Source of the DNA: Gammaproteobacteria bacterium | GTDB taxonomy: Bacteria > Pseudomonadota > Gammaproteobacteria > Steroidobacterales > UBA11654 | DNA length: 64,000 nt | Reading direction: 5' to 3' | Assembly: GCA_002717445.1 (NCBI GenBank) | Contig: PBDY01000002.1 | Span: 39,186 to 103,185, forward strand | Shown here: piece after piece, positions 10,489-41,971 of the stretch | Layout: the number at the start of each line of letters is the position of its first letter | How positions within the stretch are numbered: the first letter of the stretch is position 1 | Translations under genes and position numbers: made by a program | Notes under the pieces: generated by a model | Databases searched by the model: none | Seen by the model: the letters and a program-made list of their open reading frames with translations, nothing else | Told to the model about the DNA's origin: nothing

Positions 10489-10558
10489 AAAAACCCCGAA
10501 AGACCTTTTAGATAGAAAATATAAGTAATACAATCCCAGTATCTATATAGAGAAATTC

Positions 10559-12025
10559 GTGAACCAGAAAGTCGGAATCAGTGCAATTACAACCTATGTC
10601 CCTCCTTATCGAGTTGGGCTCGAGGATTGGTGTCATTGGACCAATAGCTCATGGAGTAAGATCAGTAAAATTATCGGCTCTGGCTTCAGAATGCTTGGCC
10701 CTGATGAAAGCATATATACGATGGCTGCAAATGCCGTCCTTAATCTAATTGTCGATAATGAGATTAACCCGGATGAAATCGGTTTTTTGGCACTGGGCAC
10801 TGAATCCAGTACCGATAACTCTGCTGGGACAGTCATCATTAAAGGAATGGTTAATGAAGAACTTAAAAATAGAGGCATGGATCCAATATCCAATCAATGT
10901 GAAGTTCCTGAATTTAAGCAAGCTTGCCTATCAGGCATATATGCACTAAAGAATGCTGTTCGTTACGTTAAATCTGATGCGCCTGAGAAGAAAGCGATTG
11001 TGGTCTGTTCTGATATTGCACTCTATCAGATTGGATCATCGGGGGAACCAACTCAGGGGGCGGGAGCAGTTGCAACATTAATTGAGTCAAATCCTCAGAT
11101 CGCTGAGGTTAAGACTGCATTTTCTGGAAGTTCTTCAGAATATCGTCAAATAGATTTTAGAAAGCCAATTCAGTATCGGGCTCAAAATTTAAATGGACAA
11201 TCTGCTTCAGACTTAGATTTGCCCATTTTCAACGGAAAATATTCTGCAAGTTGTTACATCGATGGAACAATTTCAGCTCTATCAAATATGAGTGAAAACA
11301 GAGGTAAGAGTCTTTCCAAATTATTAAAAGAAGCAATGGCTGTGTTCATGCATAGACCTTTTCATAAAATGCCCATCAATGCGTTTTCTATTTCATACCT
11401 TTATGCATTAGCCAATGGTGACGAAAATGACAATCAAGAACTCGATGATTTAATAGCGCAAGCCGATGTTTCTGAGGGTGAAATTAAAAAAGAGCTTCAA
11501 GAAAAGCCTGATCTCATGTCTTTTCTTCAAACGAATATCAATAAAGATTTATTTCCTCAAACAAATATGGCATTGAAGTTGATACATCAAATAAAACCTT
11601 TCAAGGATCGAGTATTGTCTAAGTTAAAATTGGGTAATGAGTTAACGAAAGAATTGGGTAACATCTATTCAGGCTCTATTTTTGCCTGGTTGGCAGCGGG
11701 TATTGAGGATTCAATGAAAAATGGCAAAACTCTCAATGGCCAAGAAGCATTGTTAATCGGTTATGGAAGTGGCGATGCTGCTGAAGTCATTCCTATTTCC
11801 TTCACTCAAAACTGCTGTGAGAATGAGAGGAATATTAAATATTCTGCCGCATTCATCGAGCCAGTTAATCTGGATCACAATCAATACATAGAACTTAGGA
11901 CAAATAAGGTTCTTGAAGGTGCGGGAGCCAAAAAATCAAAAGGTTTTATCATTAGCAAGATTGGTACACAAGAATCTACCGATTTTCAAGATGCGGGAAT
12001 TGAGTATTACGAGTATCTCAATTAG
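10559..12025 (+). CDS. Hydroxymethylglutaryl-CoA synthase family protein
   Basis: 488-aa ORF with a GTG start. Thiolase-like fold with HMGS-type catalytic residues in context: Glu (LALGTESSTDNS), Cys (EFKQACLSG) and His (MHRPFHKM), plus GNIYSGSIF and GYGSGDAAE blocks. Confidence 0.7.
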   Translation: MNQKVGISAITTYVPPYRVGLEDWCHWTNSSWSKISKIIGSGFRMLGPDESIYTMAANAVLNLIVDNEINPDEIGFLALGTESSTDNSAGTVIIKGMVNEELKNRGMDPISNQCEVPEFKQACLSGIYALKNAVRYVKSDAPEKKAIVVCSDIALYQIGSSGEPTQGAGAVATLIESNPQIAEVKTAFSGSSSEYRQIDFRKPIQYRAQNLNGQSASDLDLPIFNGKYSASCYIDGTISALSNMSENRGKSLSKLLKEAMAVFMHRPFHKMPINAFSISYLYALANGDENDNQELDDLIAQADVSEGEIKKELQEKPDLMSFLQTNINKDLFPQTNMALKLIHQIKPFKDRVLSKLKLGNELTKELGNIYSGSIFAWLAAGIEDSMKNGKTLNGQEALLIGYGSGDAAEVIPISFTQNCCENERNIKYSAAFIEPVNLDHNQYIELRTNKVLEGAGAKKSKGFIISKIGTQESTDFQDAGIEYYEYLN

Positions 12026-12028
12026 TCT

Positions 12029-14050
12029 TTACTCTTCTAAGTATTTTTCATACCAGTCTAAATATCGATCTAATCTATCTTTAATATAGCTTGGCTTACT
12101 TAAGCCATGATTTTCATCTGGATAAATGATCAACTGGGTTGGAATATTGAGATGCTTCAGTGCCTGATACATCTGCTCAGAACCAATTAAAGGGACGTTG
12201 TAGTCTTTTTCTCCAACCAAGAATAATGTCGGTGTTACGATATCATCTGCATTCAGGAATGGATGTGAAACGTTCAGCCATGCATCTAGATTATCCCAAG
12301 GTGTTCCCATCTCAATGATATATTCTCTTATATAATGATCATCCCCAAACCCACTTAAAATATTTGAGATTCCTGCTCCTGAGGTTGCCGCATGAAAACG
12401 GTTATCTTTAGCGATTACGTAGTTTGTAAGCATACTTCCATAACTCCAGCCTCCAATGCCTAACTTGTTATCATCGATATAATCAAGATCGAGTGCAAAA
12501 TCCAATGCTGCACTTATGTCTTTAGAATCTTCAATGCCCCAATTTGCAAAAATAGATTTCTGGAATTCAAAACCCCTTCCTGAGCTACCTCTTGGATTGG
12601 TTACCATCACAACATAACCATTTGAGGCAAAGAGTTGCCAATCAAAATCAAAGTATCTTCCATATTGAGAAACTGGACCACCATGAATTCTTATCATCAA
12701 GGGATATTTCTTTTTTGGATCAAAATCATGCGGCTTAATCATCATTCCATTTATTACAAGATTATCAAAGCTTTGGAATGATATAAGCTCGGTAGGTCCA
12801 ACCAACCTATTTTTTATGAAATCTTCATTCTCTGTGGTAATAGCATCAATTTGACCTTCCTTTAAAAGATATATTTCACTTGGAATATTTGCTGTTGAAG
12901 ATTCGAAGAGAATCTTATCATCTCTTACATAGTAGTTCCTTGAGTAACCATCTAAATACATGTTCTCAGGCGTCACTTCTTCAGAAGTATTATCCATCAA
13001 TGAGTATTTTATGAGTTGACTCTTCATATCATCCTCGAGAATGAAATAAATATTTTGTCCATTTTTTGACCATTGAGGCATAGTCGTATTTCGATCAAGA
13101 TCTTTTGTAATAAAATCAGTTATGCCACTTTCTACATCAATAATTGATACTTCTTGAAGTGCATACCAAAGCATTGCGTGATCACCGCCATGAAGATATG
13201 CAATCTTACTTCCATCAGGACTCCACTGAGGTCTCGATCCCGAGAGAGGTGATGAATCCTCGCTATTATTAGAAGTGAGTTTTCTAGGCTCTTTAGCCTC
13301 TTTTATTTCTTTTATGAAAATATCCCAGTCATTATGTCGATCAAACTCTCCTTCTTTTGTCATAAAAGCGACGTTTTTTCCATCAGGAGAAATAGCAGGA
13401 TGATAATGATCTCTTTGCCCTGATGTTATCTGTTCTTCTTTCTTGGATTTTGTATCAAAAATAAATAAATGATCTCTATTCTTTCCAAGGAATCCTTCAT
13501 AATCTCTTTTAAACTGATAACGATCGATAACGATTGGGGGAGGCGTCTCATCACTGATCTCTTCCTCAGAATTTTTGACGCCTATGAAAGCAATTGTTTT
13601 TTCATCTTTGGATACATCATAGTCAGTGATATTTCCATCGAAATGAGTCACTCTTTTTTTAACTCTGTTAGAAAGATTCAGAGACCATACTTGGGTATTA
13701 TTTTTTCTAGATTCGCTTATTCCAGATGATAGGAAATAGATTGATTTTGAGTCACTTGAGAACTTCACTGATGAGAAACTCATACCTTTCTCCCCTAGGG
13801 ATTCTAATAATTTTAGTTTCTTCCCTTTTTTAGTATCAAGAAAATAAAGGGTTCTTCTAAAATCATCTTCTTTTTTATTTGCCTTGCCGGTTATAAATAC
13901 GAGACCACTTCCATCATTGGAAACATCAGAAAGAAAGACACTTCTCATAGAATATACGTCTTCAGTCTTGAATGAATTATCTGCATGTAAGGGTGAAAAT
14001 ATGAATATTGAAACTAAAAAGAAAATAAACTTGTTTTGATTCATAACCAT
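12029..14050 (-). CDS. S9 family serine peptidase with N-terminal beta-propeller (secreted)
   Basis: 673-aa ORF with a signal peptide, TolB/WD40-like repeats (SPDG.. motifs) and a C-terminal catalytic domain carrying GGWSYGS (GxSxG) and DENHGLS. Confidence 0.85.
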   Translation of the reverse strand: MVMNQNKFIFFLVSIFIFSPLHADNSFKTEDVYSMRSVFLSDVSNDGSGLVFITGKANKKEDDFRRTLYFLDTKKGKKLKLLESLGEKGMSFSSVKFSSDSKSIYFLSSGISESRKNNTQVWSLNLSNRVKKRVTHFDGNITDYDVSKDEKTIAFIGVKNSEEEISDETPPPIVIDRYQFKRDYEGFLGKNRDHLFIFDTKSKKEEQITSGQRDHYHPAISPDGKNVAFMTKEGEFDRHNDWDIFIKEIKEAKEPRKLTSNNSEDSSPLSGSRPQWSPDGSKIAYLHGGDHAMLWYALQEVSIIDVESGITDFITKDLDRNTTMPQWSKNGQNIYFILEDDMKSQLIKYSLMDNTSEEVTPENMYLDGYSRNYYVRDDKILFESSTANIPSEIYLLKEGQIDAITTENEDFIKNRLVGPTELISFQSFDNLVINGMMIKPHDFDPKKKYPLMIRIHGGPVSQYGRYFDFDWQLFASNGYVVMVTNPRGSSGRGFEFQKSIFANWGIEDSKDISAALDFALDLDYIDDNKLGIGGWSYGSMLTNYVIAKDNRFHAATSGAGISNILSGFGDDHYIREYIIEMGTPWDNLDAWLNVSHPFLNADDIVTPTLFLVGEKDYNVPLIGSEQMYQALKHLNIPTQLIIYPDENHGLSKPSYIKDRLDRYLDWYEKYLEE

Positions 14051-28668: not shown

Positions 28669-29232
28669 ATGAAAAGAATAATTATTGGAATCTCAGGCGC
28701 AAGCGGCGTTATTTATGGCATTCGGCTTCTTGAGATACTCAAAGAAATTGAAGGTGTTGAGTCACATCTCGTGATGACCAATGGTGCCAAACTTAATATT
28801 TCACTAGAAAGTGAGTTTGACTCAAAGACTGTCAAAGAGCTTGCTGATGTTGTGCATAGTGATAAAAACTTGGGAGCCAGTATCGCCAGTGGTTCATATG
28901 AAACAGAAGGCATGATTATTGCCCCATGTTCCATGAAAACGCTTTCTGGTGTTGCAAACTCATATGCTGTAAATCTTATCGTCAGAGCGGCAGATGTGGT
29001 GTTAAAGGAGGGCAGAAGCCTAATCATTATTCCGAGGGAAACACCCCTCCATTTGGGACACATTGATCTGCTTAGGAAGGTGTCGTTGATGGGCGCTCAT
29101 GTGGTTCCACCAAATCCAGCTTTCTATAACCATCCAGAATCAATTGATGACATCATTAACCATACCGTTGGAAGAGTTTTGGATTTGATTGGTATAGACA
29201 ATGAAGTGGTGAGCCGGTGGAAGGGCGTATAG
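28669..29232 (+). CDS. ubiX: Flavin prenyltransferase UbiX
   Basis: 187-aa ORF with IIIGISGASGVIYGIRLLE, APCSMKTLSG and RETPL blocks. Confidence 0.9.
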   Translation: MKRIIIGISGASGVIYGIRLLEILKEIEGVESHLVMTNGAKLNISLESEFDSKTVKELADVVHSDKNLGASIASGSYETEGMIIAPCSMKTLSGVANSYAVNLIVRAADVVLKEGRSLIIIPRETPLHLGHIDLLRKVSLMGAHVVPPNPAFYNHPESIDDIINHTVGRVLDLIGIDNEVVSRWKGV

Positions 29233-29238
29233 CAGAGC

Positions 29239-29751
29239 ATGACCGAATCATCTGTTGAAGGAGTTCAAAACAATGCCACTGAGATGCTCAAAGAGCACCA
29301 CACTCTCACCATCTCAACAAGAGACAATGCATCCGTTTGGTCTGCGACAGTGTTTTATGTCTCAGACTCAAATCTGAACCTGTTTTTTCTATCTTCAGAA
29401 AAGAGCAGGCATATACAACACATCAATATGAACCCCGAGGTTTCTGCAACAGTCTATAAGGATCAAAAAGATTGGGAAAAGCTTAAGGGAATTCAGATCT
29501 CAGGAACGGTCGAATCGGTCAAAGGATTGGAGAGGGAACACACCATCGATCAATATCTTGAAAAATATGAATACCTGAATCGCGTGATCAATCATCCATT
29601 AAATGAAGACGAAGAAAAAATTGGCTCACGATTTAAATCCATACTATTTTTTAAACTGAAGCCAAGTTTGATAAGGATCATTAATAACCAAGTGGCGTTT
29701 GGTCATAAAGAACAAATTGAGAAAAAAGGAGGGAAATGGGAGTTATCTTAA
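29239..29751 (+). CDS. PNPOx-fold (FMN-binding split barrel) protein, YhbP/UPF0306-like
   Basis: 170-aa ORF starting 6 nt after ubiX. It resembles E. coli YhbP as I recall it (..W.A.VFY...FFLS.EKSRH.. and a C-terminal LFFKLKPSLIRIINN..FGHK). Confidence 0.6.
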   Translation: MTESSVEGVQNNATEMLKEHHTLTISTRDNASVWSATVFYVSDSNLNLFFLSSEKSRHIQHINMNPEVSATVYKDQKDWEKLKGIQISGTVESVKGLEREHTIDQYLEKYEYLNRVINHPLNEDEEKIGSRFKSILFFKLKPSLIRIINNQVAFGHKEQIEKKGGKWELS

Positions 29752-30536
29752 AGATCGTCCGTTGAGTATTTTGGAAGCTGCCCTAGGTGAGCACCACTGT
29801 CAACGATTAAGACCTCTCCTGTAATCAAAGGTGCCCCTTCCAAAAACCAGACCAATACTTCTGCCACATCTTCAGCAGATGCCACTTTCTTAAGCGGAAG
29901 GTTGGTTTCGCCCTGTTTTATAAGAGATTCATATGCTTCATCACTCATTCCGCCTTTTAGCCATCGGGTTTTGATTGGGCCAGGAGCCACTGCATTGATT
30001 CGAATTTCAGGCCCTAAAACATGAGCCAAAGATTTAGTCATTGCATTGAGAGCCGCTTTTGAAGCAACATAAGCTATAGAGGACCCCACTGCGTTGACTC
30101 CTGCCAGTGATGAGTCATTTACGATGGCGCCCAAACCCTGTTTTTTCATGTGCGGGACGACCGCCTTTATCATTTGATAAGCTCCGACCACGTTCACTGC
30201 ATAAATTGACTGAAAATCATCCATGGACAAGCCATCTAAGTTTTCAAACGGATTGAATTTGGTGCGACCTGCATTATTGACAAGATAATCTATTTGACCC
30301 CATTGACTAATGGCTGCAGAAACCATCGCTTGGCATTCATCATCTTTTGAAACATCTGCTTGAAAAACAATTGTCTCTGCACCATGCTCTTCTGCCAGTT
30401 TAGCTGTCTCTAAGGCTTCATCTTTTGATCGCGTATAATTGATGACAACATTGCATTCTTTTTCTGCTAGAAGAATCGCAGTAGCTGCACCAACACCAGT
30501 TGCAGACCCGGTAATAATGGCTACTTTTTTACCCAT
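29748..30536 (-). CDS. SDR family oxidoreductase
   Basis: 262-aa ORF with TGSATGVGAA (TGxxxGxG), NNAG and YVASKAA (YxxxK) motifs. Confidence 0.85.
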   Translation of the reverse strand: MGKKVAIITGSATGVGAATAILLAEKECNVVINYTRSKDEALETAKLAEEHGAETIVFQADVSKDDECQAMVSAAISQWGQIDYLVNNAGRTKFNPFENLDGLSMDDFQSIYAVNVVGAYQMIKAVVPHMKKQGLGAIVNDSSLAGVNAVGSSIAYVASKAALNAMTKSLAHVLGPEIRINAVAPGPIKTRWLKGGMSDEAYESLIKQGETNLPLKKVASAEDVAEVLVWFLEGAPLITGEVLIVDSGAHLGQLPKYSTDDL

Positions 30537-30656
30537 ATAATCTCACTCGATATTGATTTTCTATTGTATCGGTTAAACTTAACAAAATCTTTGATTTAAT
30601 TTGGATACCTGACAAGGCACAATAATCCTATAGATTAAGATTCGAGGAGATAGAGA

Positions 30657-32153
30657 GTGCAATTTAATGACATGAGAGGATACATTGATGTCCTTAGAAA
30701 AGAAGACTTGCTGCATGATTTGAATATTCAACTCAATGTAGCCAGAGAAACATCTGAGCTTCAAGCGCTGATGAGACATTTGCATAATGAAAACGGTCCC
30801 GCACTCTTGTTAAATAATCTTGAAGGTTACAACATGCCGGATATACCTCTGCTATTTAATCCCTATGGAACTCGTGAAAGAACAGCAATGATTTTGGGAG
30901 AGAGAGATCCACTCAAAGCAAAAGCAAAGCATGCAAAAGTTTTAACCGATCAATCCAGTTGGATTGAACCAAATATTATCAGCAAAGAAGATGCGCCCTG
31001 TAAGCAAAATACAATAACAGATCGGAATATTGACCTCGCGAAGCAGCTTCCTCATGCATGGTTTGGCAAAGAGGGTCCATCGTATATTACTAATGCTGTT
31101 GTGATCACAAAGGATCCAGAAACAGGTGTTGCGAACACAGGCTGTTATCGACTGACACAATTATGGAATGCATCACATCCTCATGGGGAAATATACTCTG
31201 AAGAGGAGCAAAGAAGATGTTTATCGATCTTTGCATTCTGGAATCCCCCTGGTAATCATATCGGTCTTCACTGGGCAAAAGCGCAAGAAATGGGAAAACC
31301 ATTGGAAATTGCCATTGCATGTGTTGTTGACCCAGTGATCCAATTGGCCGGCGCAACCAGTTTGCCGTTTGGCTTGGATGAAATGAATTTTGCGGGTGGA
31401 TTAAAAGGAGAAGCGATCGATGTGGTTCCTTGCGAAACCGTTGATATTGAAGTGCCCGCAAGAGCAGAATTGATCATAGAGGGTCAATTTCTTCCAAATA
31501 GAGATATCACGATTGGTCCTCATTCTAACCCAATTGGTTACTATGATGATGAGCAATTATTTCCTCTTATGGAGGTTCAATGCATCACCCATAGAGATCA
31601 ACCTTTGTGGTATTCAACAATGGAAATGATGCCCCCATTTGATCACAACTATATGGCTTGTTTGCCAATAGAGGGTGAATTACTCAGCGATCTGCAAAGC
31701 AAGATTCCAGAGGTTAAAGATGTAGTGGTTACTCCAAACCTCAGCTATTTTGTTCAGCTTTCCGTTGACGGAGCTCAAAAGCCACATCCTGAGTTTGGAA
31801 AGTATGTTTTGCATGCAGTATGGGGTGCAAGCGGCAGATGGGGCAGAACGGCAAAAATTGCAGTTGTGATTGGACCGGATGTAAACCCTTACGATCTTAA
31901 TGAGGTTGAATGGGCAATATTGACTCGTGTGCAGCCACATACAGACACGATCATCAATCAATCCGGACAGGCATTCCTCATGGATCCATCAGCGCCAAAA
32001 GATTCCGGTCATGGAATTGCACTTCAATCCGAACAAATGGGCATTGATGCAACCATAAAGGTGTTTGAGCGTTTTCATTCATACCCTGAATACAGCAATG
32101 CTGACCAAGAAGCTGTTTCAGCCATTGCTGAGAAATTAAAGGGATCATTCTAG
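30657..32153 (+). CDS. UbiD family (prFMN-dependent) decarboxylase, substrate uncertain
   Basis: 498-aa ORF with a GTG start 7 nt after GAGGAG. It has the UbiD architecture ([24 protein letters not shown]), but it diverges from E. coli UbiD as I recall it. Confidence 0.8.
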
Positions 32154-32169: not shown

Positions 32170-33789
32170 GTGACTGTGAGCAAGAAAACAAAGCTGTTTA
32201 GAGAATTACTACTGAGCAAAAATCTTGAATTCTTGCTTGAGGCACATAATGGAATCAGTGCAAAAATTGCAGAAGAGGCAGGCTTTAAGGGTCTTTGGGC
32301 AAGCGGACTAGCAATATCTGCCCAATACGGTGTCAGAGATAGCAATGAGGCCAGCTGGACACAAGTGCTTGAAAACATAGAGTTCATGTCAGATGCCAGC
32401 AATATCCCAATCATGCTCGATGGCGATACTGGCTACGGTAACTTTAATAATGTTAGGCGTTTGATTAAAAAACTCGAACAGAGAAACATTGCGGCAGTTT
32501 GCATTGAGGATAAGCTTTACCCTAAAACCAATAGTTTCATAGATGGAGATAAGCAAGAACTTGCTGATATAGACGAATTTTGTAGTCGAATTAAGGCAGG
32601 CAAGGACGCCCAGATTGATGATGAATTCTCAATCATCACTAGGATTGAGGCTTTCATAGCCGGATGGGGATTAAGTGAGGCTTTGAAAAGAGCAGAGGCA
32701 TATCATCAAGCAGGCTCGGATGCGATTTTAATCCACAGTGCAAAATCTGAGCCAAGTGAAGTTTTGGCTTTCAAAAAAGAGTGGGGTGACACTTCGCCTG
32801 TGATTGTGGTTCCAACAAAATATTATTCCACTCCAACAGAGGTGCTGGAGCAAGAAGGATTTTCCATTGCAATTTGGGCGAACCACATGATCAGATCTTC
32901 AATCAAAGCCATGCAAGAATCCGCAGAAGAAATCTTTGCATCATCGTCAATTCTATCAACTGAAGGTGAGATTGCTTCTGTCAAAGAGGTTTTTCGGTTA
33001 CAAGGCGTTTCTGAATTAAAAGAGGCTGAAGAAAATTATTTACCAAAAAAAGAAAGGACAACAGATGCACTCATTCTTGCTGCTTCCCGAGGAGAAGCCA
33101 TGGGCAGTCTGACCGATGAACAACCCAAAACCATGATCCCACTGAAAAATAAAAGCATGTTAGAGCACATTACTGATATATATCGGAATCACGGAGTCAG
33201 TAAAATTCATGTTGTCCGAGGATACAAAAAAGAAGCAATCAATTTTCCCGAGTTGAACTATATAGACAATGATGATTTTGAGACCACTTCTGAGCTGTCT
33301 TCTTTTCATATGGCCATTGATCAGACCGATTCCGATATATATTGTTCATTTGGGGATGTTTTATTTAAGCCTTATTTGCTTCAATTAATGGATGATTTAG
33401 AAGACGATTTAGTGATTGTTGTAGATACACAATGGCAGGATTCTGTAAATAAAGACAGAGCAGCTGACTATGTAAAATGTTCCGAACCTCATTCCAGAAC
33501 TAATTATGGAAATCCAATATTTATAAAGTCTGCAGGAGAAGCACTGGATCAGGAGTCCATTCATGGAGAATGGATGGGTGTTATTAAAATTTCCTCTAAG
33601 GTTATGCCATTGATAAAAAAAGAGGTGAATCACCTATCAAAGGGAGAGGATTTTCATTCAATGAAAATGCACCATTTATTGGAACATTTATGCAAAAATA
33701 AGCAACCAATCAGAGTTGTTTACACCACGGGAAATTGGCTAGATGTCGACACACTCGAAGACGTCATAAGGGCTAATAATTTCATATGA
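32170..33789 (+). CDS. pepM: Phosphoenolpyruvate mutase fused to a C-terminal nucleotidyltransferase domain
   Basis: 539-aa ORF with a GTG start. Residues ~1-295 are near-colinear with known PEP mutases ([65 protein letters not shown]-type blocks). Residues ~300-539 form a LicC/MobA-like NTP-transferase fold ([26 protein letters not shown]). Confidence 0.9.
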
Positions 33790-34931
33790 TTTGTGCTGAA
33801 AAATTTTTAGATGAAGCATTTTATCTGGGTTTTAACGCCTATACAGGTGTTCCTTGTTCATTTTTGAAGCCTTTGATCAATGCATCAATTGAGACCGATC
33901 ATTTATCATACATTCCTGCTGTCAATGAAGGTGACGCAGTAGCTATTGCGGCTGGAATATATCTTGGTGGAGGTTTGCCTGTCGTCATGTTTCAAAATTC
34001 AGGATTGGGCAATGCCGTCAATCCATTTACATCCTTGATTCAAACCTTCGAAATACCCATTTTAATGATTGCCACACTGAGGGGTGACCCAGAGAATGAG
34101 CCTGACGAGCCTCAGCACCAACTTATGGGTAAGATCACAACCCAGATTCTTGATTTGATGGAAGTCAGTTGGTCTTGGTTTCCTGGAAACGAAGATGAAT
34201 TGACTGTAACAATGGAGACGATTAAAGATCGGATAATCGATTACCAAAAACCACATGTTTTAGTGATGAAGAAAGGTTCGGTTGAGCCGTATGAGCTTAC
34301 TGACCAATCTAAACATAAGAATGACCAAGCTTTAACCATAGATGATTGTGTGAACGAAACATCAGATTTGGTGAGTAGAGGCGATGTCATGAAGATGATC
34401 ATAGAGAAAACAACCGAAAAAGATGATTTGATCATCGCTACCACAGGTTATTCTGGAAGAGAGCTTTATGCTGCCGAGGACCGGAACAATCATTTCTATA
34501 TGGTTGGCTCAATGGGCTGTGCGATAGACATAGGATTGGGTTTATCAATGATGCAGCCGAATAAAAGAGTGATTGTCATCGATGGCGATGGGGCCCTCCT
34601 CATGCGTCTAGGTGCCATGTCAACAGTTGGTTTTATGGCTCCTGAGAATCTCACCCATATTGTTTTGGACAATGGTGTGTATGAGTCTACAGGCTCTCAA
34701 AAAACAGTTTCCTCAATACTAGATTTTAAAATGTTTGCGCATTCAAATTGTTATAGAAACTCATCGAAATTGAATTCCTTGGAAGACCTCGATTCGTTGC
34801 TTGAATCAAATAAGAAAGGACCAAACTTCATTCATTTCCCAATTAAGGCAGGAGTACCAAACAAACTTCCTCGCCCTTTAATCTCACCAAATGAGGTTGC
34901 ACAAAGATTTAGAGGAAATATAAATGATTAA
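33786..34931 (+). CDS. ppd: Phosphonopyruvate decarboxylase (ThDP-dependent)
   Basis: 381-aa ORF with an ATGA overlap onto pepM. It has ThDP enzyme blocks ([32 protein letters not shown]...[10 protein letters not shown]), and its position directly after pepM is canonical. Confidence 0.85.
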
Positions 34932-36021
34932 TCAAAAGCAAAATATTTTACTTAATCCAGGCCCAGTCAATATGTCGGATCGTGTAAAGAGACGCATGAT
35001 CAATGAGGATTTCTGTCACAGAGAGAATGAGTTCTCAAGTTTGATACAAGAGGTTAATTCTCAGCTGGCGAGTATTTATGACGATATGGAGGATTATGAA
35101 TCTGTGATCCTAACCAGTTCTGGAACTGGAGCCGTTGAAGGCATGTTGACCTCTTTTATACATGACGAGAAGTCACTGGTGATCAGCAATGGTGTTTATG
35201 GTGAGAGAATGGAAAAGATTTTACGTGTTCAGGGTAAGGCATACCAGACGATCCAATTTAACTGGCTTGATACAATTGATGTTCAATCAATTGCAGACTG
35301 TGTTGATGCCGATCGGAGCATTAAAAATCTAATCATGGTTCATCATGAAACGACCACTGGTCGTTTGAATCAATTAAGAAAAATAGGCCAATTGTGTAAG
35401 GACTATGGTCTTAATTTATACCTTGATGGTGTCAGTAGTTTTGGCGCAGAAGAAATTATGGCAAATGAAATCAACCTGAAAGCCGTTGCTGCATCTGCAA
35501 ATAAATGCCTCCATGGCGCACCCGGTCTTGCTTTTGTGATTGCACATAAGGATCAATGGGAAAAAGCTCCCAGGGAACCCTCTGGTGTGTACTTTGATTT
35601 ACATCAGTATTATGGCATGCAAAAAACAGACGGATTCTCGCCATTTACTCAAGGCACCCATTTGGTTGCCGCTCTTCATGAGGCAATTCTTGAATTCAGA
35701 GAAATGGGCGGATGGCAGGCAAGAAATACTTTATTTCAGCAAAGGGCAGAACAAATCTATGTTTGCTTGCATCAACTTGGTATTGAAACACTGATACCGA
35801 ATGAAGATTACTCATCGGTACTGAGGTCTTATCAACTGCCACAAGGCATTGGGTATCAAGATTTACATGCCTACATGAAAAGCAATGGATTTGTGATTTA
35901 TCAAGGACAAGGCAGCTTCAAGCAAAACATTTTTAGAATTTCAACAATGGGCCACATTGAAGAATCGGATATCACTTTATTGTGTGATTTGTTTAAAAAT
36001 TTTTTCAAAAACCATGGTTAA
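34924..36021 (+). CDS. 2-aminoethylphosphonate:pyruvate aminotransferase (class V aminotransferase)
   Basis: 365-aa ORF with an 8-nt overlap onto ppd. LLNPGPVNMSDRVK at the N-terminus and SANKCLHGAPGLAF (PLP-Lys context) fit the class V family, and the context completes the PepM-Ppd-transaminase route. Confidence 0.8.
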   Translation: MINQKQNILLNPGPVNMSDRVKRRMINEDFCHRENEFSSLIQEVNSQLASIYDDMEDYESVILTSSGTGAVEGMLTSFIHDEKSLVISNGVYGERMEKILRVQGKAYQTIQFNWLDTIDVQSIADCVDADRSIKNLIMVHHETTTGRLNQLRKIGQLCKDYGLNLYLDGVSSFGAEEIMANEINLKAVAASANKCLHGAPGLAFVIAHKDQWEKAPREPSGVYFDLHQYYGMQKTDGFSPFTQGTHLVAALHEAILEFREMGGWQARNTLFQQRAEQIYVCLHQLGIETLIPNEDYSSVLRSYQLPQGIGYQDLHAYMKSNGFVIYQGQGSFKQNIFRISTMGHIEESDITLLCDLFKNFFKNHG

Positions 36022-36772
36022 AGAAGCTGTAATTTTAGCAGCAGGGATGGGAAGCCGATTGGGTGGTCAAAATGATCAAAAGCCTAAAGGGCTTTTGCAG
36101 TTTGGTAGTCAATCCATTATTGAGGAGTCCATCAATAAGCTGATCAAGAATGGCATTGAGAAAATATGGATTGTCACGGGCTATCAATCTCAATACTTTA
36201 AAGAATTAACCAATCATTACAATTCAATCGTAAGCCTTGTGGATAATGCAGAGTATGATCAATCGGGAACATTGCATTCACTGTCGATGGTTGCAGACAA
36301 GGTTCGCTCTCCATTTTTATTGCTAGAGTCCGATATTATTTTTGAATACAGGGCAATTCAAACGATTCTAAATCATCAAAGTGAAAACTGTATTTTATTG
36401 AGCGGTTTCAGTGATTGTGGCGATGAGGTATTCGTTGAAGCCAATCAGGAAGAATTGGTAATGATGTCAAAAGACATGAGTGAGCTCAGCAGCCCGCCAG
36501 CTGGAGAATTGGTTGGAATTACAAAAATAGGGGAAGAATTATTTAAAATGATGATGCAGTTTCATGAAAGCGATGAAAAAAACAAATTGGCTGATTATGA
36601 AACCGATGCATTGGTTGCAGTTGCTAAAGTGATCTCAATTTCCTGCCTAAAAATAGAAGACTTAATATGGTCAGAAATAGATGATCAAGATCATCTCAAA
36701 CGTGCAAGGGAAGAAATTTATCCCATGGTTGTTGAAACTGATTTAAAATATTTTCCTAATTCATCGAAATAA
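36014..36772 (+). CDS. Stand-alone nucleotidyltransferase (LicC/MobA-like NTP-transferase fold)
   Basis: The start is set at ATG 36014, giving an 8-nt overlap (ATGGTTAA) with the transaminase stop. The N-terminus AVILAAGMGSRLG...KPKGLL is the canonical NTP-binding loop. Confidence 0.7.
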   Translation: MVKEAVILAAGMGSRLGGQNDQKPKGLLQFGSQSIIEESINKLIKNGIEKIWIVTGYQSQYFKELTNHYNSIVSLVDNAEYDQSGTLHSLSMVADKVRSPFLLLESDIIFEYRAIQTILNHQSENCILLSGFSDCGDEVFVEANQEELVMMSKDMSELSSPPAGELVGITKIGEELFKMMMQFHESDEKNKLADYETDALVAVAKVISISCLKIEDLIWSEIDDQDHLKRAREEIYPMVVETDLKYFPNSSK

Positions 36773-36784
36773 AGGCATTTATAG

Positions 36785-36982
36785 GTGACAAAAAGGATAA
36801 TAATTTTCTCAATGGTATCGGTTTGTTATGTCAATTCAGCTCATGCATACCTTGATCCCAGTACAGGAGGCATGCTGATTTCAGCAATACTGGGAATGTT
36901 TGCAACACTGGGTTTGGTGATTAAATCATATTGGTATAAATTAAAGTCACTCTTTAAAAAGAAAGAAAAAAGGATTGATTGA
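36785..36982 (+). CDS. 65-aa membrane peptide, unknown function
   Basis: GTG start 12 nt after the previous stop. A hydrophobic N-terminus ending in SAHA is followed by YLDPSTGG, a TM segment (MLISAILGMFATLGLVI) and a Lys-rich tail. It is kept because it sits inside a tightly coupled operon. Confidence 0.45.
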   Translation: MTKRIIIFSMVSVCYVNSAHAYLDPSTGGMLISAILGMFATLGLVIKSYWYKLKSLFKKKEKRID

Positions 36983-36991
36983 TCATTCGAT

Positions 36992-38122
36992 ATGACGACT
37001 TTTTTTAAAGGATATCAAGGATATCGAACATACAAAAAACTACCCAAATCTTTCAAAAAGATTGTTTTTTATTCAGAGAGTTTTCAAGACTGGCATCATC
37101 TCAAGCCTCTCTTGAATACATTACTAAATCAAGAAATAGATACCACCTATGTTGCTTCAGACGAGAAAGACCCTGGATTGCTAAAGCAGTCTCCAAATTA
37201 CAAATCGATCTTCATAGGAAAGGGTTTCTTTAGGATTTTGTTCTTTCAGTACTTAAAGGCAAAGTTGTTTATTTTAACGATGATGGATTTGAATAATTTT
37301 GAACTAAAGAGATCCATGCACTCAGTGCACTACGTATATATTTTTCATAGTTTAACCAGCACACACATGGTGGATACAGAAGAATCATTCGATCACTATG
37401 ACACCATATTATGTGCTGGCCCCCATCAAAAGAAAGAAATTGAATTGAGGGAGCAAAACAAAGATTTGAATGCCAAGAATCTTGTTTCCTATGGGTATCC
37501 GAGACTTGAAAGGTTGATCGAAATGAATGCGAAGCCGGTTACCCATAATAAAGTGATACTTTTGGCTCCCACATGGGGCGAGCAGAGCATTATCAATCTT
37601 ATAGGAATGGAGATATGCTCGATCATCATTGATCATGGTTATTCCTTGATCTTGAGACCGCATCACGAAACCCTTAAGCGCTCACCAGAGCTAATCAATG
37701 AAATAGAAAATCAGTATTCACACACTGAAAAATTTCGATTGGTCACAGAGATGGGGGATTCTCAGTCGCTCTTGCAGTCTGACTTATTAGTTTGTGATTG
37801 GTCGGGAACTGCAATTGAGTATTCACTGGGATTAGAAAAGCCCGTCATTTTCATCGACATACCCCCAAGAGTCAGGAATCCAAATTGGGAGGAGATTAAA
37901 TCTGAACCATTGGAAATGAGCATCAGAGAAAAAGTGGGTCGAATCATCTCTCCATCAGAACTTGAAGAGCTGCCGTCAACCATTGATGAATTACTCAATG
38001 ATGATCAACTCTTTTCAGATCAGATAGAATCACTGCGTGAAGAATTTGTATATAATTTAAGTCATTCAGAAAGCGTTGGTCTAGAAGAGATAAAGAAATT
38101 ACTAAAAACACTCAAAAACTAA
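36992..38122 (+). CDS. TagF/TagB-like CDP-alcohol phosphotransferase family protein
   Basis: 376-aa ORF. The blocks YIFHSLTSTH, SYGYPRLERL, ILLAPTWGE, ILRPHHE and LLVCDWSGTAIEYSLGLEKPVIFID parallel the TagF-family blocks (WHG.., GYPR.D, YAPTWR, KPHP, LITDYSS..KP) as I remember them. Confidence 0.6.
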   Translation: MTTFFKGYQGYRTYKKLPKSFKKIVFYSESFQDWHHLKPLLNTLLNQEIDTTYVASDEKDPGLLKQSPNYKSIFIGKGFFRILFFQYLKAKLFILTMMDLNNFELKRSMHSVHYVYIFHSLTSTHMVDTEESFDHYDTILCAGPHQKKEIELREQNKDLNAKNLVSYGYPRLERLIEMNAKPVTHNKVILLAPTWGEQSIINLIGMEICSIIIDHGYSLILRPHHETLKRSPELINEIENQYSHTEKFRLVTEMGDSQSLLQSDLLVCDWSGTAIEYSLGLEKPVIFIDIPPRVRNPNWEEIKSEPLEMSIREKVGRIISPSELEELPSTIDELLNDDQLFSDQIESLREEFVYNLSHSESVGLEEIKKLLKTLKN

Positions 38123-39894
38123 ATTATTCTTCAGCATGGTTCCTCTGGTATGGCTTTTTTAATGGGCTTATAGCCTTTCTCATTGGAATTCAGTATCTCC
38201 TTTTTTTTCCTTCAAGCACGACATTGCTTTCTGCAAGCTATGTTCTGTTTGCAACCTTGACTCATTTTATATCAATACATTTTCTACCCCTTCTCTTGCT
38301 CTCTTTGGTGCATCGGATTGCAGGCATGAAAAAATTCCTTATCCTCTTAGCAATAATTTACGCATCAACCATTAATACACTGATTGTCATGGATGCAAAC
38401 TTCTTTGCAGTAAACCGATTTCACATGAGTCTTATGACTGCGATCCTTTTTGACAGTGAAACTTATCTTTTTTCAATCCTCCAGTTCATCATTATGGTCG
38501 TCTTTCATTATTTTCTTGGTAATGAAATCGGGAAGTCTCTGGAAAGGAGAAGAAATAAGTCTTTTATTGGTGTTTCTCTCGCAGTAGCCACCATGAGTGC
38601 ATGGATTTATGTCCAAGGTGTCCACATTTGGGCCGATGCAAGCTATCAATCTTCCATCACCACTTTTACGCGATATTTGCCATTGTTCAGACCTATTCAC
38701 GCCAAAAGAGATCTTGCTAGATTGGGTTTAATCGATTCGGATCAATTGAGGAAACAGAATTTGTCTAAGAAAACAATGGATTCTGAGTTACTTTATCCAA
38801 AGAATGAGCTGCTTTGTCGCAGCGATACACAATCAGAAAATGTTTTGGTTATTTTAATCGATGCTTTGCGTCCTGAGATGATCAATGGTGAGATCATGCC
38901 CAATACTGCAAAACTTTTTTCTGAAAGCATCAGTTTTGATAATCACTACTCAGGCGGAACCTCCTCAAGAATGGGTATGTTTTCACTCTTTTATGGTTTG
39001 CCCTCTACATATTGGAGAGTGTTTCATGACAATCTAAAACCCGCATTAATGATTACAAAGTTTGATGAGAGCAATTATGACATACACGCCATCAGTTCAT
39101 CGGGCTTGGGAAGTCCTGCAGTGCTTGATAGGACCGCCTTTGCAGGCATTTCCAGTATCAACCTCAGACCACTTGGTGCTTCCGAAAAAGCCAGCCTAAA
39201 ATTGGTGACAAATGGTTGGGTAGAGACAATCAAGCAAAACCAAGATCCTAAATTCTTCACATTGCTTCATTATGACCCTCCAATCGATGAAGCCAACCCA
39301 AGTGAATCTTTAAATATCGCCAACAAATTTTCAAGAAAGAATGATACATCTCACAATCTTGAGGTCTCAAGATATATACAGTCCATTCGTGATGTGGATA
39401 TGGAAATTGGAAGGTTAAGCAATGTTTTACGAGAAAGGGATATGCTCAAAGACACCATTGTAATTCTAACCTCAGACCACGGTTATGAGCTCGATGATTA
39501 TCAAACCAATTATTATGGCCATTCCAGTAATTATAGTCCCGCCCAAACCAAGGTTCCTTTAAAAATCATTTGGCCAAACAGGGATTCTCAGAAATATTCT
39601 TTTCGATCATCGCACCATGATTTTGCACCAACTTTATTAAAGGAAGTATTGGGTTGTACAAACAGCTACTCTGATTACAGCACTGGCAATAATTTATTTC
39701 AGCAAAAGCCTTGGAAATATTTGATTGCCGGGAGTTATGATTCATTCGCTGTCTTGACGCCTGAAAAAGTCATCATATCCTATGGAAGTTATTTTGAGGT
39801 CAGAGATAAAAATTACAATCTCTCTGAAATTGAAGGCAAGGATTTGAAAGACATGGAGGATGCAATATCCAATATGAGTGAGTATTACAAATAA
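38098..39894 (+). CDS. YejM/PbgA(LapC)-like inner-membrane protein with periplasmic alkaline-phosphatase-superfamily domain
   Basis: Colinear with E. coli YejM from memory (VHIWADASYQ, FSLFYGLPSTYW). It also carries an ILTSDHGYE metal motif. The reading frame is open from 38056 and encodes the conserved first TM (SAWFLWYGFFNGLIAFLIGIQYLLFF) upstream of the first canonical start (TTG 38224). The start is provisionally placed at ATT 38098, and confidence in that start is only about 0.4. Confidence 0.7.
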   Translation: MTKNTQKLNYSSAWFLWYGFFNGLIAFLIGIQYLLFFPSSTTLLSASYVLFATLTHFISIHFLPLLLLSLVHRIAGMKKFLILLAIIYASTINTLIVMDANFFAVNRFHMSLMTAILFDSETYLFSILQFIIMVVFHYFLGNEIGKSLERRRNKSFIGVSLAVATMSAWIYVQGVHIWADASYQSSITTFTRYLPLFRPIHAKRDLARLGLIDSDQLRKQNLSKKTMDSELLYPKNELLCRSDTQSENVLVILIDALRPEMINGEIMPNTAKLFSESISFDNHYSGGTSSRMGMFSLFYGLPSTYWRVFHDNLKPALMITKFDESNYDIHAISSSGLGSPAVLDRTAFAGISSINLRPLGASEKASLKLVTNGWVETIKQNQDPKFFTLLHYDPPIDEANPSESLNIANKFSRKNDTSHNLEVSRYIQSIRDVDMEIGRLSNVLRERDMLKDTIVILTSDHGYELDDYQTNYYGHSSNYSPAQTKVPLKIIWPNRDSQKYSFRSSHHDFAPTLLKEVLGCTNSYSDYSTGNNLFQQKPWKYLIAGSYDSFAVLTPEKVIISYGSYFEVRDKNYNLSEIEGKDLKDMEDAISNMSEYYK

Positions 39895-41339
39895 TGTCAA
39901 TATTGATCAGAATTTATCTGCTGATTTTGATATTTTCTCATCAAGTACTGGGGCAGGAACAATCTCTCGATCAGAATCATTTTGACCAGATCACATTTGA
40001 TCAAGACACACCTCTGATCCAAAAGTGGGTGACGTGTTATCCAGATTGCTCATCCCAAAATAAAAACTCTTTTGAGATCAATACTGATTTCAGAACAGTC
40101 TTAAAAATCATGAATAGCAAAGGAGATTCTCACAATGACTATGTGATGACATCAAGAAAAGTAGGCGATGACTTTAAGATTTCGTACGCCCGAAGCAATT
40201 ATGAAGATGGGATATCAGAAGTGATTTTCACAACTGACACAAAGTTTGGTTTTTTGGAGCTAACGGTTCGATCTGATGCTGATATTCAGATTGAAATCAA
40301 CCCAAAGAATTTATTAAAAGAAGGCGATATCTATGGAATGGGCGGTATCTACAATGGCACATGGCTAGTAAGGGTTGATGATCGTGGCTCTGAAAACCTA
40401 TCCAATTTGAGTCAAGCTATTACTCAGGAAGGTTCATGGATTGGTGTTCGAACAAGATTCTGGTCTTTCCTTGTTTCCCCTAGAAATAATGAAGCATTGG
40501 TCAATAAAATCAATGAATCAGAGCTGGGATTAAGATTTAGATCAACTGCTGTAGATGGCTTGCATCGGTTTGTCTTGTATTTTGGCCCTCTGAGTACAAA
40601 ACAGTTTGTAGGCTCAGAGTCAGAACTAAGGAAACTTATGTACGCTGCACTTTGGGACTGGTTGAGACAATTATGCTTCTTTATTGAGTGGATCTTCATT
40701 TGGCTTTTAGAATTTTCTGGAAATGCAGGTTTAGCAATTCTTCTGCTTGCATGCGTACTAAAAGTCATCATTTATCCTCTCAATCGAATTGCTGAAAAAT
40801 GGCAGGACGATGTGAATGTTATTCACTCTATGCTGCAACCTAAGATCAATGAAATAAAATGCAATTTCTCAGGCGAAGAGGCCAATCACAGAATCATGAA
40901 ACTGTATAAAGATAAAAACATAAGTCCTTTTTACTCAATAAAGAGTTTTTTTGGTTTTCTGATACAGATACCAATATTCATAGCGGTCTTTGATGTATTG
41001 GGAGAATCAATATATCTATTGGGAGAGCCTTTTGTTTTTATTAATGACCTAAGCAAGCCTGATCAATGGGCAATGTTGCCATTCTTTATTCCTTATTTTG
41101 GGTCTTCAATGAATCTTTTACCATTTTGCATGATGATCATCAGCATTTTGAGCGCATATCTTTATACAGATAAAAATTTAAACAAAAATTTATTAAGCAA
41201 CCAAAAAAGAAAATTATATTTGATGTCTTTCTTATTTTTTGTCTTGCTGTTCACTTTTCCATCCGGGATGGTGCTTTATTGGACAACTTCGAATTTCCTT
41301 CATTTGATGCAAATGCAAATAAAAAAGGCTCTTCATTGA
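39894..41339 (+). CDS. YidC/Oxa1 family membrane protein insertase homologue
   Basis: 481-aa ORF with a TAATG junction to the upstream gene. It has an N-terminal anchor/signal, a shortened P1-like domain (WIGVRTRFWSFLVSP; LYFGPL) and a core with GNAGLAILLLACVLKVIIYPL, MLQPKINEIK, MKLYKDKNISPF, LIQIPIFIAVF and FPSGMVLYWTTSN. Confidence 0.75.
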   Translation: MSILIRIYLLILIFSHQVLGQEQSLDQNHFDQITFDQDTPLIQKWVTCYPDCSSQNKNSFEINTDFRTVLKIMNSKGDSHNDYVMTSRKVGDDFKISYARSNYEDGISEVIFTTDTKFGFLELTVRSDADIQIEINPKNLLKEGDIYGMGGIYNGTWLVRVDDRGSENLSNLSQAITQEGSWIGVRTRFWSFLVSPRNNEALVNKINESELGLRFRSTAVDGLHRFVLYFGPLSTKQFVGSESELRKLMYAALWDWLRQLCFFIEWIFIWLLEFSGNAGLAILLLACVLKVIIYPLNRIAEKWQDDVNVIHSMLQPKINEIKCNFSGEEANHRIMKLYKDKNISPFYSIKSFFGFLIQIPIFIAVFDVLGESIYLLGEPFVFINDLSKPDQWAMLPFFIPYFGSSMNLLPFCMMIISILSAYLYTDKNLNKNLLSNQKRKLYLMSFLFFVLLFTFPSGMVLYWTTSNFLHLMQMQIKKALH

Positions 41340-41350
41340 AGAGCCTTTTT
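41321..41350. terminator. Bidirectional rho-independent terminator
   Basis: AAAAAA, then GGCTCTT (41327-41333), loop CATTG, AAGAGCC (41339-41345), then TTTTT. It sits between the convergent yidC-like gene and the 41366-41971 gene, and the yidC-like stop codon lies in the hairpin. Confidence 0.65.
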
Positions 41351-41365
41351 AGGATTGATGTTTTT

Positions 41366-41971
41366 TTACATGAAAAATCCGTGACCAGCACCTACCATGC
41401 TCATCAGCATTGGAATGGACAACATTGTGTTGGTTCTTGAAGCGAGAAAAGCAGTTCTTGCTGCTTTTGCTTTTTCTTCTGCAGTGGCCTCAACGATCCC
41501 CAAAACTTTTTTCTGGTTTGGCCAAATTAAAACCCAAACGTTGAACAACATAATGGTCCCCATCCATGCACCGATACCAATTGTTGTGGCATATGCATTC
41601 CCTGTTCTCATACCCAGTTCAAAAGCATCTCCAAGTACACCATTTAGATGCAAATAAGTTGCACCAGTCAACCATGTGACTAAGGCTGCCCATCTAAACC
41701 ACAGAAGCGCTCTTGGAGCGACATACTTAGTGATTGCTGCTGGCCCTGGCCCACCTTCATCAGCATTTGCTTCCGCGACGGAGGGAACTTGGACAAAATT
41801 AAAGTAATAAAGAAGACCGATCCAAGCCACACCTGCCGCCACATGTAACCAAATCACGATTGATTGGACACCATTAACTGAAGCGGTTGAATTTCCAATT
41901 GCAATCACTACAGCGATAACCAGTCCAGTTATAATCGTTCCAGTGATTTTATCCAAAGGATTCATAAACAT
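41366..41971 (-). CDS. Integral membrane protein, unknown function (resembles the N-terminal membrane domain of PuuD-type proteins)
   Basis: 201-aa ORF with 4-5 hydrophobic helices. The WLHVAAGVAWIGLLYYFNFVQ block resembles the WLH..A..WIG..FYF block of urate hydroxylase PuuD N-termini as I recall them. The functional call is weak. Confidence 0.5.
   Translation of the reverse strand: MFMNPLDKITGTIITGLVIAVVIAIGNSTASVNGVQSIVIWLHVAAGVAWIGLLYYFNFVQVPSVAEANADEGGPGPAAITKYVAPRALLWFRWAALVTWLTGATYLHLNGVLGDAFELGMRTGNAYATTIGIGAWMGTIMLFNVWVLIWPNQKKVLGIVEATAEEKAKAARTAFLASRTNTMLSIPMLMSMVGAGHGFFM

Follow-up and report, generated by a model that had tools for sequence, protein, structure and literature searches.

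Organization of the operon

We analyzed eight plus-strand genes at positions 32176-41339 of a 64,000-nucleotide stretch of gammaproteobacterial DNA (assembly GCA_002717445.1, contig PBDY01000002.1, positions 39,186 to 103,185). This whole stretch is referred to as the window, and all coordinates are window coordinates. Judging from their sequences, the eight genes probably form one operon that makes 2-aminoethylphosphonate (AEP) and attaches it to the cell envelope. The last four genes encode a 65-aa membrane micro-protein, a 376-aa TagF-like GT-B phosphotransferase, a protein with the architecture of YejM, and a divergent YidC/Oxa1 paralog. A first-pass annotation of this DNA had drawn attention to the first two of these four, the plus-strand open reading frames (ORFs) at 36785-36982 and 36992-38122. 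Their coordinates and the 9-nt gap between them were confirmed. The annotation had also placed them downstream of genes presumed to form AEP activated with cytidine monophosphate (CMP-AEP), and profile searches did find a suitable set of four genes on the 5' side.

The first gene (32176-33789, with public gene calls also starting at 32176) encodes a phosphoenolpyruvate (PEP) mutase, PepM, fused to a MobA/LicC-type nucleotidyltransferase domain that is PntC-like. It scored 380 bits with TIGR02320 PEP_mutase (cut-off 319.55), PF12804 matched residues 300-418, and a 10-letter motif is readable in the translation. The second gene (33786-34931) encodes a phosphonopyruvate decarboxylase (Ppd; TIGR03297, 402 bits, cut-off 312.5). 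The third (34924-36021) encodes a 2-aminoethylphosphonate transaminase, which matched PF00266 and scored slightly below the cut-off of 360.8 for TIGR03301 PhnW-AepZ (347 bits, E 1.5e-103). Homology shows PepM, Ppd, and the transaminase to be the predicted makers of AEP. The fourth gene (36014-36772, with the same start in public calls) encodes a stand-alone LicC/PntC-type nucleotidyltransferase of 252 aa with matches to PF12804 and PF00483. The operon therefore carries two LicC/PntC-type nucleotidyltransferase domains, one on PepM and one stand-alone, and both adjoin the AEP biosynthesis genes. PntC enzymes are known to produce CMP-AEP, after which the pathway has been called "enigmatic" (Rice et al. 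2019, PMC6697681). The stand-alone nucleotidyltransferase is presumed to be the CMP-AEP maker, with its substrate taken from that study. Two PntC-type nucleotidyltransferases are common in AEP clusters (PMC8942020; PMC6697681).

The exact proteins are present in marine "Gammaproteobacteria bacterium" metagenome-assembled genomes (MAGs) and in Tara and GORG assemblies. Their only public labels are "CDP-glycerol glycerophosphotransferase family protein" and "hypothetical protein".

The 376-aa TagF-like enzyme

Homology shows the 376-aa protein (36992-38122, ATG start) to be a predicted cytoplasmic TagF-like enzyme with a two-Rossmann GT-B fold that belongs to a distinct subfamily. The first-pass annotation had quoted the blocks YIFHSLTSTH, GYPRLERL, LLAPTWGE, LRPHHE, and LVCDWSGTAIEYSLGLEKPVIF as parallels to the TagF/TagB family, and all of them were found in the translation. 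The resemblance itself stands. PF04464 (Glyphos_transf) matched residues 128-287 with 40 bits, above the curated cut-off of 22.1 (E 3.1e-10), and most homologs carry a precomputed PF04464 match. Profile and fold searches group the protein with TagF, TarL, and Cps3D and with no unrelated GT-B family. No NCBIfam model matched in the profile library search, and phmmer with the single protein against the PDB returned nothing relevant. With the family profile, the sole PDB match was TarL (8va1, E 1.2e-5), in which RPH aligned with KMHP and SDWSG aligned with SDYSS.

A structural model was made with AlphaFold2 (AF2) from an 83-sequence alignment and reached a predicted local distance difference test (pLDDT) score of 94.1 and a predicted template-modeling score (pTM) of 0.91. 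Foldseek searches of this model against the PDB returned Cps3D (8qoy, 1.2e-12), TagF (3l7l, 5.9e-12), and TarL (8va1, 2.4e-8), with Bcs3 also at or near the top. These TagF-family structures ranked ahead of or among generic GT-B enzymes, with template-modeling scores of 0.52-0.58.

Two histidines are the accepted hallmark of the TagF-type family (Schertzer et al. 2005, as cited in PMC11924219). The first-pass annotation had proposed their absence as a way to refute the assignment, and both are present and invariant in 83 homologs, as H119 and H224. For the second histidine (TagF H584, TarL H433), hhalign was run against three TarL-type proteins encoded on plasmids and gave 94% probability over the C-domain, with H224 paired with TarL H433. 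In this domain, hmmsearch and hhalign both pair R222-P-H224 with K-M-H433-P and D269-W-S-G with D472-Y-S-S, and both segments are invariant in the 83 sequences. The second histidine and the SDYSS nucleotide loop of the family thus have counterparts in H224 and the D269-W-S-G272 loop. For the catalytic base (TagF H444, TarL H300), the local alignment did not reach the region, and global hhalign, of low confidence there, pairs F118-H119-S with W299-H300-A and K106-R-S with R-R-S. TarL H300 is the residue changed in the 8va1 "H300N" structure. By homology, H119 would correspond to the catalytic base of TagF/TarL, and H224 with D269-W-S-G272 to the CDP-binding (cytidine diphosphate-binding) histidine and the SDYSS loop. 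The invariant residues in the 83 diverse homologs include H119, S123, H125, D137, R222-P-H224, D269, S271, E308, and R312.

An exhaustive search found 646 clusters (50% identity) at E<1e-30, nearly all of about 380 aa and 30-45% identical. The locus is abundant in marine Gammaproteobacteria MAGs, with the exact 376-aa protein on at least 63 contigs, and tblastn against plasmids found no match. By every feature that could be tested, the enzyme belongs to the TagF-like superfamily, where it forms a subfamily of its own whose predicted donors are of another class.

Several observations concern the naming and domain content of the subfamily. JGI/IMG names many members "YidC/Oxa1 family membrane protein insertase" (P0356, P0372, P0383, P0001, and others), a label that probably spread from YidC-TagF-like fusions such as P0336. 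In about one tenth of the top family representatives, the C terminus bears an additional helical domain of roughly 150 aa with the conserved motif LExLCRKxDxxKKV...ALKxxNxA (P0204, P0207, P0212, P0227, P0234, P0268, P0280, P0302, P0309, P0322, and P0347); this domain has no match in Pfam. Other extra domains are an ATP-binding cassette (ABC) ATPase in P0270 and a formyltransferase in P0213. A natural TagF-YejM fusion was considered and rejected, as the long C-terminal extensions of some members are not YejM transmembrane (TM) domains. The Campylobacter jejuni methyl phosphoramidate (MeOPN) transferases Cj1421/Cj1422 were considered as TagF-like relatives, were not confirmed, and were not used.

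The 65-aa micro-protein

The small ORF (36785-36982, GTG start) has the layout MTKRIIIFSMVSVCYVNSAHA|YLDPSTGG-TM-KSYWYKLKSLFKKKEKRID. Translation and alignment bear out the features reported earlier for it, namely a cleavable-looking signal ending in SAHA, the YLDPSTGG segment, one TM segment, and a Lys-rich tail. It had been described as having no family that could be named, and neither Pfam nor NCBIfam has a model for it. The idea that the ORF is not a gene was rejected because it is under purifying selection. Eighty-two database proteins match the peptide, down to 45% identity; in their alignment, the hydrophobic N-terminal segment varies and the 36-residue core after it is almost invariant. 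In 12 pairwise comparisons, the ratio of nonsynonymous to synonymous differences (pN/pS) in the core was 0.03-0.21. The conservation and coding signature in relatives that the first-pass annotation had asked for are therefore both there, and homology shows the predicted 65-aa product to be a real protein under purifying selection.

Counted over 82 distinct cores, a signal-peptidase I site (AHA|Y, of the AxA type) has A at position -3 in 64 and at position -1 in 79. In the motif Y-[LI]-D-P-x-[TS]-G, the residues Y, D, and P and the T/S position are each conserved in 82/82 cores, and G in 80/82. Conserved S, A, G, and A residues run along one face of the TM helix. The tail that follows, K-[TS]-[YF]-W-Y-[KR]-[LI]-K-x-[LF]-F, is basic and amphipathic; over the 20 residues that follow the TM helix, counted from the onset of this motif, the mean net charge is +4.5. 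Three versions (L011, L015, and L088) lack the signal segment and start just before Y, so a mature single-pass peptide that is N-out and C-in with YLDP at its N terminus fits the data. By analogy with DltX, the operon encodes a small membrane protein, whose invariant hydroxyl-bearing motif (Y, T/S) is predicted by charge distribution to be periplasmic; there is no sequence kinship to DltX.

A conserved module in diderm bacteria

A genome scan with a query alignment of 12 sequences yielded 80 loci, whose sources include Gammaproteobacteria, Fibrobacterota, Desulfobacterota and Thermodesulfobacteriota, Verrucomicrobiia, and Rokubacteria (Methylomirabilota). In 79/80 loci, the peptide gene is on the 5' side of the TagF-like gene, mostly directly adjacent, and the 80th locus begins inside the gene. 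The peptide motif occurs exactly once in each of the 80 sequences that reach it (the window and 79 genome loci). Seven more loci, found through distant homologs, have one Y[LI]DP peptide each, downstream of the enzyme, beside the YidC-like gene, or beside a sulfatase gene. The search for the motif next to TagF-like genes that had been suggested for other genomes thus found one YLDP-type peptide in 86 of 87 loci, the 87th being cut off; these loci come from at least six diderm phyla.

Partner genes were counted in the 60 loci with at least 5 kb downstream. YejM-like and YidC-like genes were both present in 54/60, and a YidC-like gene in 58/60. The first-pass annotation had not included the YejM-like and YidC-like genes in the conserved module, to which they also belong. 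Natural fusions also tie the components together. P0258 and P0224 join a signal peptide, A-Y-[LI]-D-P-x-T-G-S, a TM helix, and a TagF-like domain in one chain, while P0336 has a YidC core followed by a TagF-like domain. Both fusion types place the TagF-like domain in the cytoplasm. Since these fusions exist, the peptide, the YidC paralog, and the enzyme would be in physical contact. We also count the overlap of the TagF-like stop with the YejM-like start in other lineages toward physical coupling. The suggestion that the peptide is an anchor or partner subunit gains support from its near-obligate co-occurrence with the enzyme and from the peptide-TagF-like fusions. No description of the four-gene module was found in the searchable literature on CMP-AEP transferases, YidC with glycerophosphotransferase, or phosphonoglycan transferases.

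Nearly all the genome loci (79/80) are labeled as MAGs or uncultured single-cell assemblies. The exception, L048, is from the cultured Spectribacter hydrogenoxidans W335 (NZ_JAVRIB010000008.1). This strain has the PepM, Ppd, and transaminase genes together with all four genes of the module, and is a possible experimental host. Two minimal modules, at L094 (CP070833.1) 9129-12413 and L095 9812-12966, consist of the peptide, TagF-like, and YejM-like genes alone, whose stop and start codons overlap. Within 10 kb of either module, no nucleotidyltransferase, head-group, or YidC-like gene was found. The L094 module adjoins an Mla lipid-transport operon and is near a PlsC-type acyltransferase.

The YejM-like and YidC-like proteins

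The YejM-like protein (38098-39894, start uncertain) combines a DUF3413 TM domain (PF11893, 82.7 bits) with a periplasmic sulfatase-fold domain (PF00884, 98.5 bits), and it aligns with E. coli YejM (5i5h) over its full length at 158 bits. Its score with the NCBIfam model LapC_YejM_PbgA was 204 bits, below the cut-off of 825 that would indicate orthology. The predicted protein belongs to a paralogous, enzyme-like branch. Among the module members, D213, D418, and H419 are conserved in 61/61, H464 in 60/61, and S247 in 59/61. The protein keeps SDHG where E. coli YejM reads AGRG, and S247 occupies the position of YejM T302. Active transferases of the alkaline-phosphatase superfamily, EptA and LtaS among them, use this set of catalytic residues. 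With D213, S247, D418, H419, and H464 conserved, and with the DH pair missing from E. coli YejM, the protein of the module has the look of an active enzyme.

The start of the YejM-like gene is unusual. No canonical start lies 5' of the conserved first TM segment, WFLWYGFFNG (38137-38166), and the first canonical one is TTG at 38224. Compared with relatives, the region 38137-38223 has a pN/pS of 0.16-0.26 in the YejM-like frame versus about 0.5-4.6 in the other frames, which indicates purifying selection. The sole conserved candidate start is ATT at 38098, which gives a 25-nt overlap with the TagF-like stop. The YejM-like frame lies at -1 from that of the TagF-like gene, which leaves room for a non-canonical start or for a -1 frameshift that fuses the two products. 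PGAP, the Prokaryotic Genome Annotation Pipeline, calls ATA at 38170 (574 aa), other callers choose ATG at 38389 (501 aa), and the distant relative L009 has an ordinary ATG.

The last gene (39894-41339) encodes a divergent YidC/Oxa1 paralog of 481 aa. The conserved core of five TM helices is present (PF02096, 105 bits, cut-off 35; TIGR03592, 108.8 bits, cut-off 84.3). The best full-length YidC equivalog model gave 101.5 bits against a cut-off of 460, which sets the protein apart from housekeeping YidC, and the score against E. coli YidC was 61 bits.

A terminator-like 13-bp hairpin that contains GC is found at 41322-41350 (no strand assigned), and the next gene, at 41366-41971, is on the minus strand. 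The operon likely ends at 41322-41350 because of this hairpin and the convergent gene. Directly 5' of pepM (28669-32153) are a UbiX-like flavin prenyltransferase (28669-29232), a small flavin-binding-like ORF, and a UbiD-family decarboxylase (30657-32153). The UbiD gene has the same position in the closest relatives and is at most about 4 kb away in several Chromatiales-type loci.

Head-group pathways beside the module

The PepM/Ppd/AEP transaminase context was found in 36/47 fully flanked loci, as counted by PepM. Other loci have other head-group genes. L083 and L088 carry PepM, Ppd, and an Fe-alcohol dehydrogenase, a hydroxyethylphosphonate-type context. L081 and L089 carry a Cj1418-like kinase (NF004508, 1005 bits), a gamma-glutamyl-CDP-amidate-hydrolase-like protein, and a nucleotidyltransferase, which resembles the Campylobacter phosphoramidate pathway. 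In the Fibrobacterota locus L021, a nucleotidyltransferase is fused to a CobD-like phospho-amino-acid decarboxylase, an amino-alcohol phosphate context. The module is not phosphonate-specific, a point that the earlier annotation did not contain. The common factor in most contexts is a predicted cytidylyl-activated small head group.

The first-pass annotation had offered two roles for the enzyme: direct use of CMP-AEP to form a phosphonoester on a hydroxyl acceptor, or the building of a polyol-phosphate scaffold. Gene context favors the former and disfavors the latter. Direct use is favored because the subfamily adjoins four small head-group pathways, nearly always with a LicC/PntC-type nucleotidyltransferase, and because neither glycerol-3-phosphate or ribitol-phosphate genes (TagD, TarI, or TarJ type) nor a primase or polymer exporter turned up in the window or at the loci examined. 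Instead of a CDP-polyol donor and polymerization, this context argues for small head groups linked to CMP or CDP.

Two sets of recurring proteins were found in both hydroxyethylphosphonate- and phosphoramidate-type loci and may be further components. One set is 452-460 aa long (L081 3910-5292, L083 6347-7705, L088 6648-8021) and the other 628-705 aa (L081 13949-15835, L089 10155-12272, L083 1495-3453). No protein of either set has a recorded Pfam match, and an NCBIfam scan of four of them (L081 3910-5292, L081 13949-15835, L083 6347-7705, L089 10155-12272) gave no match to any model.

Proposed mechanism and alternatives

In the mechanism that we propose, the nucleotidyltransferases would make CMP-AEP, and the TagF-like enzyme would move the aminoethylphosphonyl group from CMP-AEP onto a hydroxyl of a conserved membrane-bound acceptor, with release of CMP. 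A conserved acceptor is proposed because the acceptor-side N-domain is rich in invariant polar residues in all head-group contexts. The 65-aa product would be inserted N-out and cleaved after A21, which would leave its YLDPxTG N terminus at the periplasmic surface of the membrane. Its TM helix may pack on partner TM helices, and its basic tail may hold the TagF-like enzyme at the membrane beside the YidC paralog. The later steps are more speculative. The first product could be a lipid-linked head group, for example AEP-diacylglycerol, which could gain the outer leaflet with the aid of the YidC paralog and the peptide. Insertases, YidC among them, have been reported to scramble lipids (PMC11047089). 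The YejM-like enzyme could then act as EptA, LtaS, or OpgB do, taking the head group onto Ser247 and passing it to a final acceptor in the periplasm or outer membrane.

A bolder form of this mechanism is a trans-envelope "head-group relay", which we regard as doubtful but worth stating. The head group, a CMP-activated phosphonate, phosphoramidate, or phospho-amino-alcohol, would be loaded by the TagF-like enzyme onto a carrier, which the YidC paralog would translocate or scramble, and the active YejM relative would deliver the head group to lipopolysaccharide (LPS) or another outer-envelope acceptor. The carrier would be either diacylglycerol, in a closed diacylglycerol cycle, or the invariant Tyr/Thr of the micro-protein, and the YidC paralog would then not be a protein insertase.

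Several results weigh against the proposed mechanism. Donor and acceptor are assigned from gene context alone, and in the minimal loci L094 and L095 the donor could be a housekeeping CDP compound. The pairing of H119 with the TagF catalytic base depends on the low-confidence global profile alignment. A profile of the N-domain (residues 88-175) had nothing but chance matches in the PDB, none of them significant to solved TagF-family structures. The partner genes are not always found in cis: 4/60 loci have only the YidC-like gene, 1/60 only the YejM-like gene, and 1/60 neither. At the groove position of E. coli YidC R366, the YidC paralog has K290, and the members have K in 41/59 and G, N, or H in 17/59. 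A single-sequence AF2 prediction of the fusion P0224 reached a pLDDT of 39 and gave no usable docking picture. Finally, the periplasmic motif of the peptide is conserved beyond what a passive anchor would need.

This last point leads to the best-surviving alternative, in which the peptide itself receives the head group, either as acceptor or as covalent shuttle. In Y-L-D-P-x-T-G, the invariant Tyr or Thr would be phosphonylated and would carry the head group over the membrane via the groove of the YidC paralog, and the YejM-like enzyme would pass the head group on. By analogy, such a route has its attractions: the motif is fully conserved across phyla, the peptide is the enzyme's only universally co-occurring partner, and a dedicated YidC paralog accompanies it in 58/60 loci. 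The peptide is also shaped like a classical YidC-only substrate: its N-out tail is short and acidic, a single TM helix follows, and the C-tail is basic. Three versions have no signal peptide. DltX, which reportedly carries D-alanine (Schultz et al. 2023), is a precedent for a shuttle of this kind. However, in P0258 and P0224 the peptide is part of the enzyme chain, an arrangement that suits a stoichiometric anchor better than a turnover substrate and argues against a covalent intermediate. The motif is also predicted to be periplasmic while the active site of the TagF-like enzyme is cytoplasmic, and protein modification is not a known activity of TagF-family enzymes. We therefore consider such a role of the peptide unlikely.

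A lipid could instead be the end product. The TagF-like enzyme would make a phosphonolipid that stays in the membrane, such as AEP-diacylglycerol, the YidC paralog would only insert the peptide and the YejM-like protein, and the latter would be a regulator or lipid binder and no transferase. Phosphonolipids are a predicted product class of many pepM clusters (PMC8942020), and substrate-dedicated YidC paralogs are known. A transferase role has not been established for E. coli YejM/PbgA, which binds LPS and lipid, but the YejM-like family of the module retains the full alkaline-phosphatase-type catalytic set that E. coli YejM has lost. The YidC core fused to the TagF-like enzyme in P0336 further suggests joint action and not mere biogenesis, and we find this explanation quite improbable.

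Least probable of all is the polyol-phosphate scaffold, in which the enzyme would use a CDP-polyol, possibly from the stand-alone nucleotidyltransferase, to build a teichoic-acid-like chain to which another enzyme, such as the YejM-like protein, adds AEP. The enzyme's characterized structural relatives (TagF, TarL, Cps3D, and Bcs3) all use CDP-glycerol or CDP-ribitol, and two nucleotidyltransferase domains make a second activated substrate conceivable. Against this, paired PntC-type enzymes are a common trait of AEP clusters (PMC8942020; PMC6697681), and the TagD/TarI/TarJ-type genes, primase, and polymer exporter were not identified in the window or at the loci examined, although some loci have ABC-transporter genes at their flanks and an ABC ATPase domain is fused to one member of the family. 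In addition, the subfamily tracks whichever small head-group pathway is present, including non-phosphonate ones, and the 376-aa protein is a bare catalytic core.

Under the proposed mechanism, the locus is a concrete and testable candidate for an AEP attachment machine; the route by which CMP-activated AEP becomes joined to cell-surface molecules is explicitly stated to be unresolved (PMC6697681). If the relay were true, it would supply the missing attachment route for much bacterial AEP and would show, for the first time, a YidC-family protein put to use in small-molecule export. The locus also exposes gaps in annotation: a micro-protein family with no Pfam or NCBIfam model, an apparently catalytic YejM branch, a YidC paralog within small-molecule biosynthesis, and a TagF-like protein that is often misnamed.

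Comparison with known systems

The 376-aa protein shares with TagF, TarL, Cps3D, and Bcs3 the GT-B fold, two essential histidines, the SD(Y/W)S(S/G) nucleotide loop, and the placement of a cytoplasmic enzyme at the membrane. It differs in being only 17-18% identical, in having an N-domain without a significant alignment score, and in lacking the extra domains of the polymerases. Its subfamily occurs in diderms beside small head-group pathways without a polyol, with micro-protein, YejM-like, and YidC-like partners.

The upstream genes resemble the Pnt (phosphonyl tailoring) pathway, in which PepM (often fused to a nucleotidyltransferase), Ppd, a transaminase, and PntC lead to CMP-AEP for decoration of the cell surface. 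A LicD-like enzyme or a glycosyltransferase has been suggested as the transferase of that pathway (Rice et al. 2019, PMC6697681), whereas the candidate here is TagF-like and has three membrane partners.

With E. coli YejM/PbgA/LapC, the YejM-like protein shares the DUF3413 TM domain, the periplasmic sulfatase fold, and an end-to-end alignment; in contrast, it keeps the SDHG metal ligands and the Ser nucleophile and sits in a modification operon. It also resembles EptA, LtaS, OpgB, and BcsG in having an N-terminal TM domain, a periplasmic catalytic domain, a metal site, and a Ser/Thr nucleophile, with similarity to LtaS being marginal (NF053595, E 0.0044). The donor of those enzymes is a membrane lipid head group, from housekeeping phosphatidylethanolamine or phosphatidylglycerol, and BcsG has a small membrane protein partner, BcsF. 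Here, a dedicated cytoplasmic enzyme would make the donor instead.

The YidC paralog shares the PF02096 core with YidC/Oxa1, and the peptide resembles YidC-only substrates. Unlike YidC, it is a second, highly divergent copy within a biosynthetic operon, has K, G, N, or H at the groove Arg position, and is fused to the TagF-like enzyme in some organisms. Finally, the proposed order of events, with cytoplasmic loading, a carrier step that involves a small membrane component, and periplasmic delivery, recalls GtrA/B/V, ArnC/ArnEF/ArnT, and Dlt with DltX. No component is homologous to those systems, and the carrier and translocation are hypothetical here, while DltX, like the 65-aa peptide, is a conserved micro-protein encoded within its own operon, dlt.

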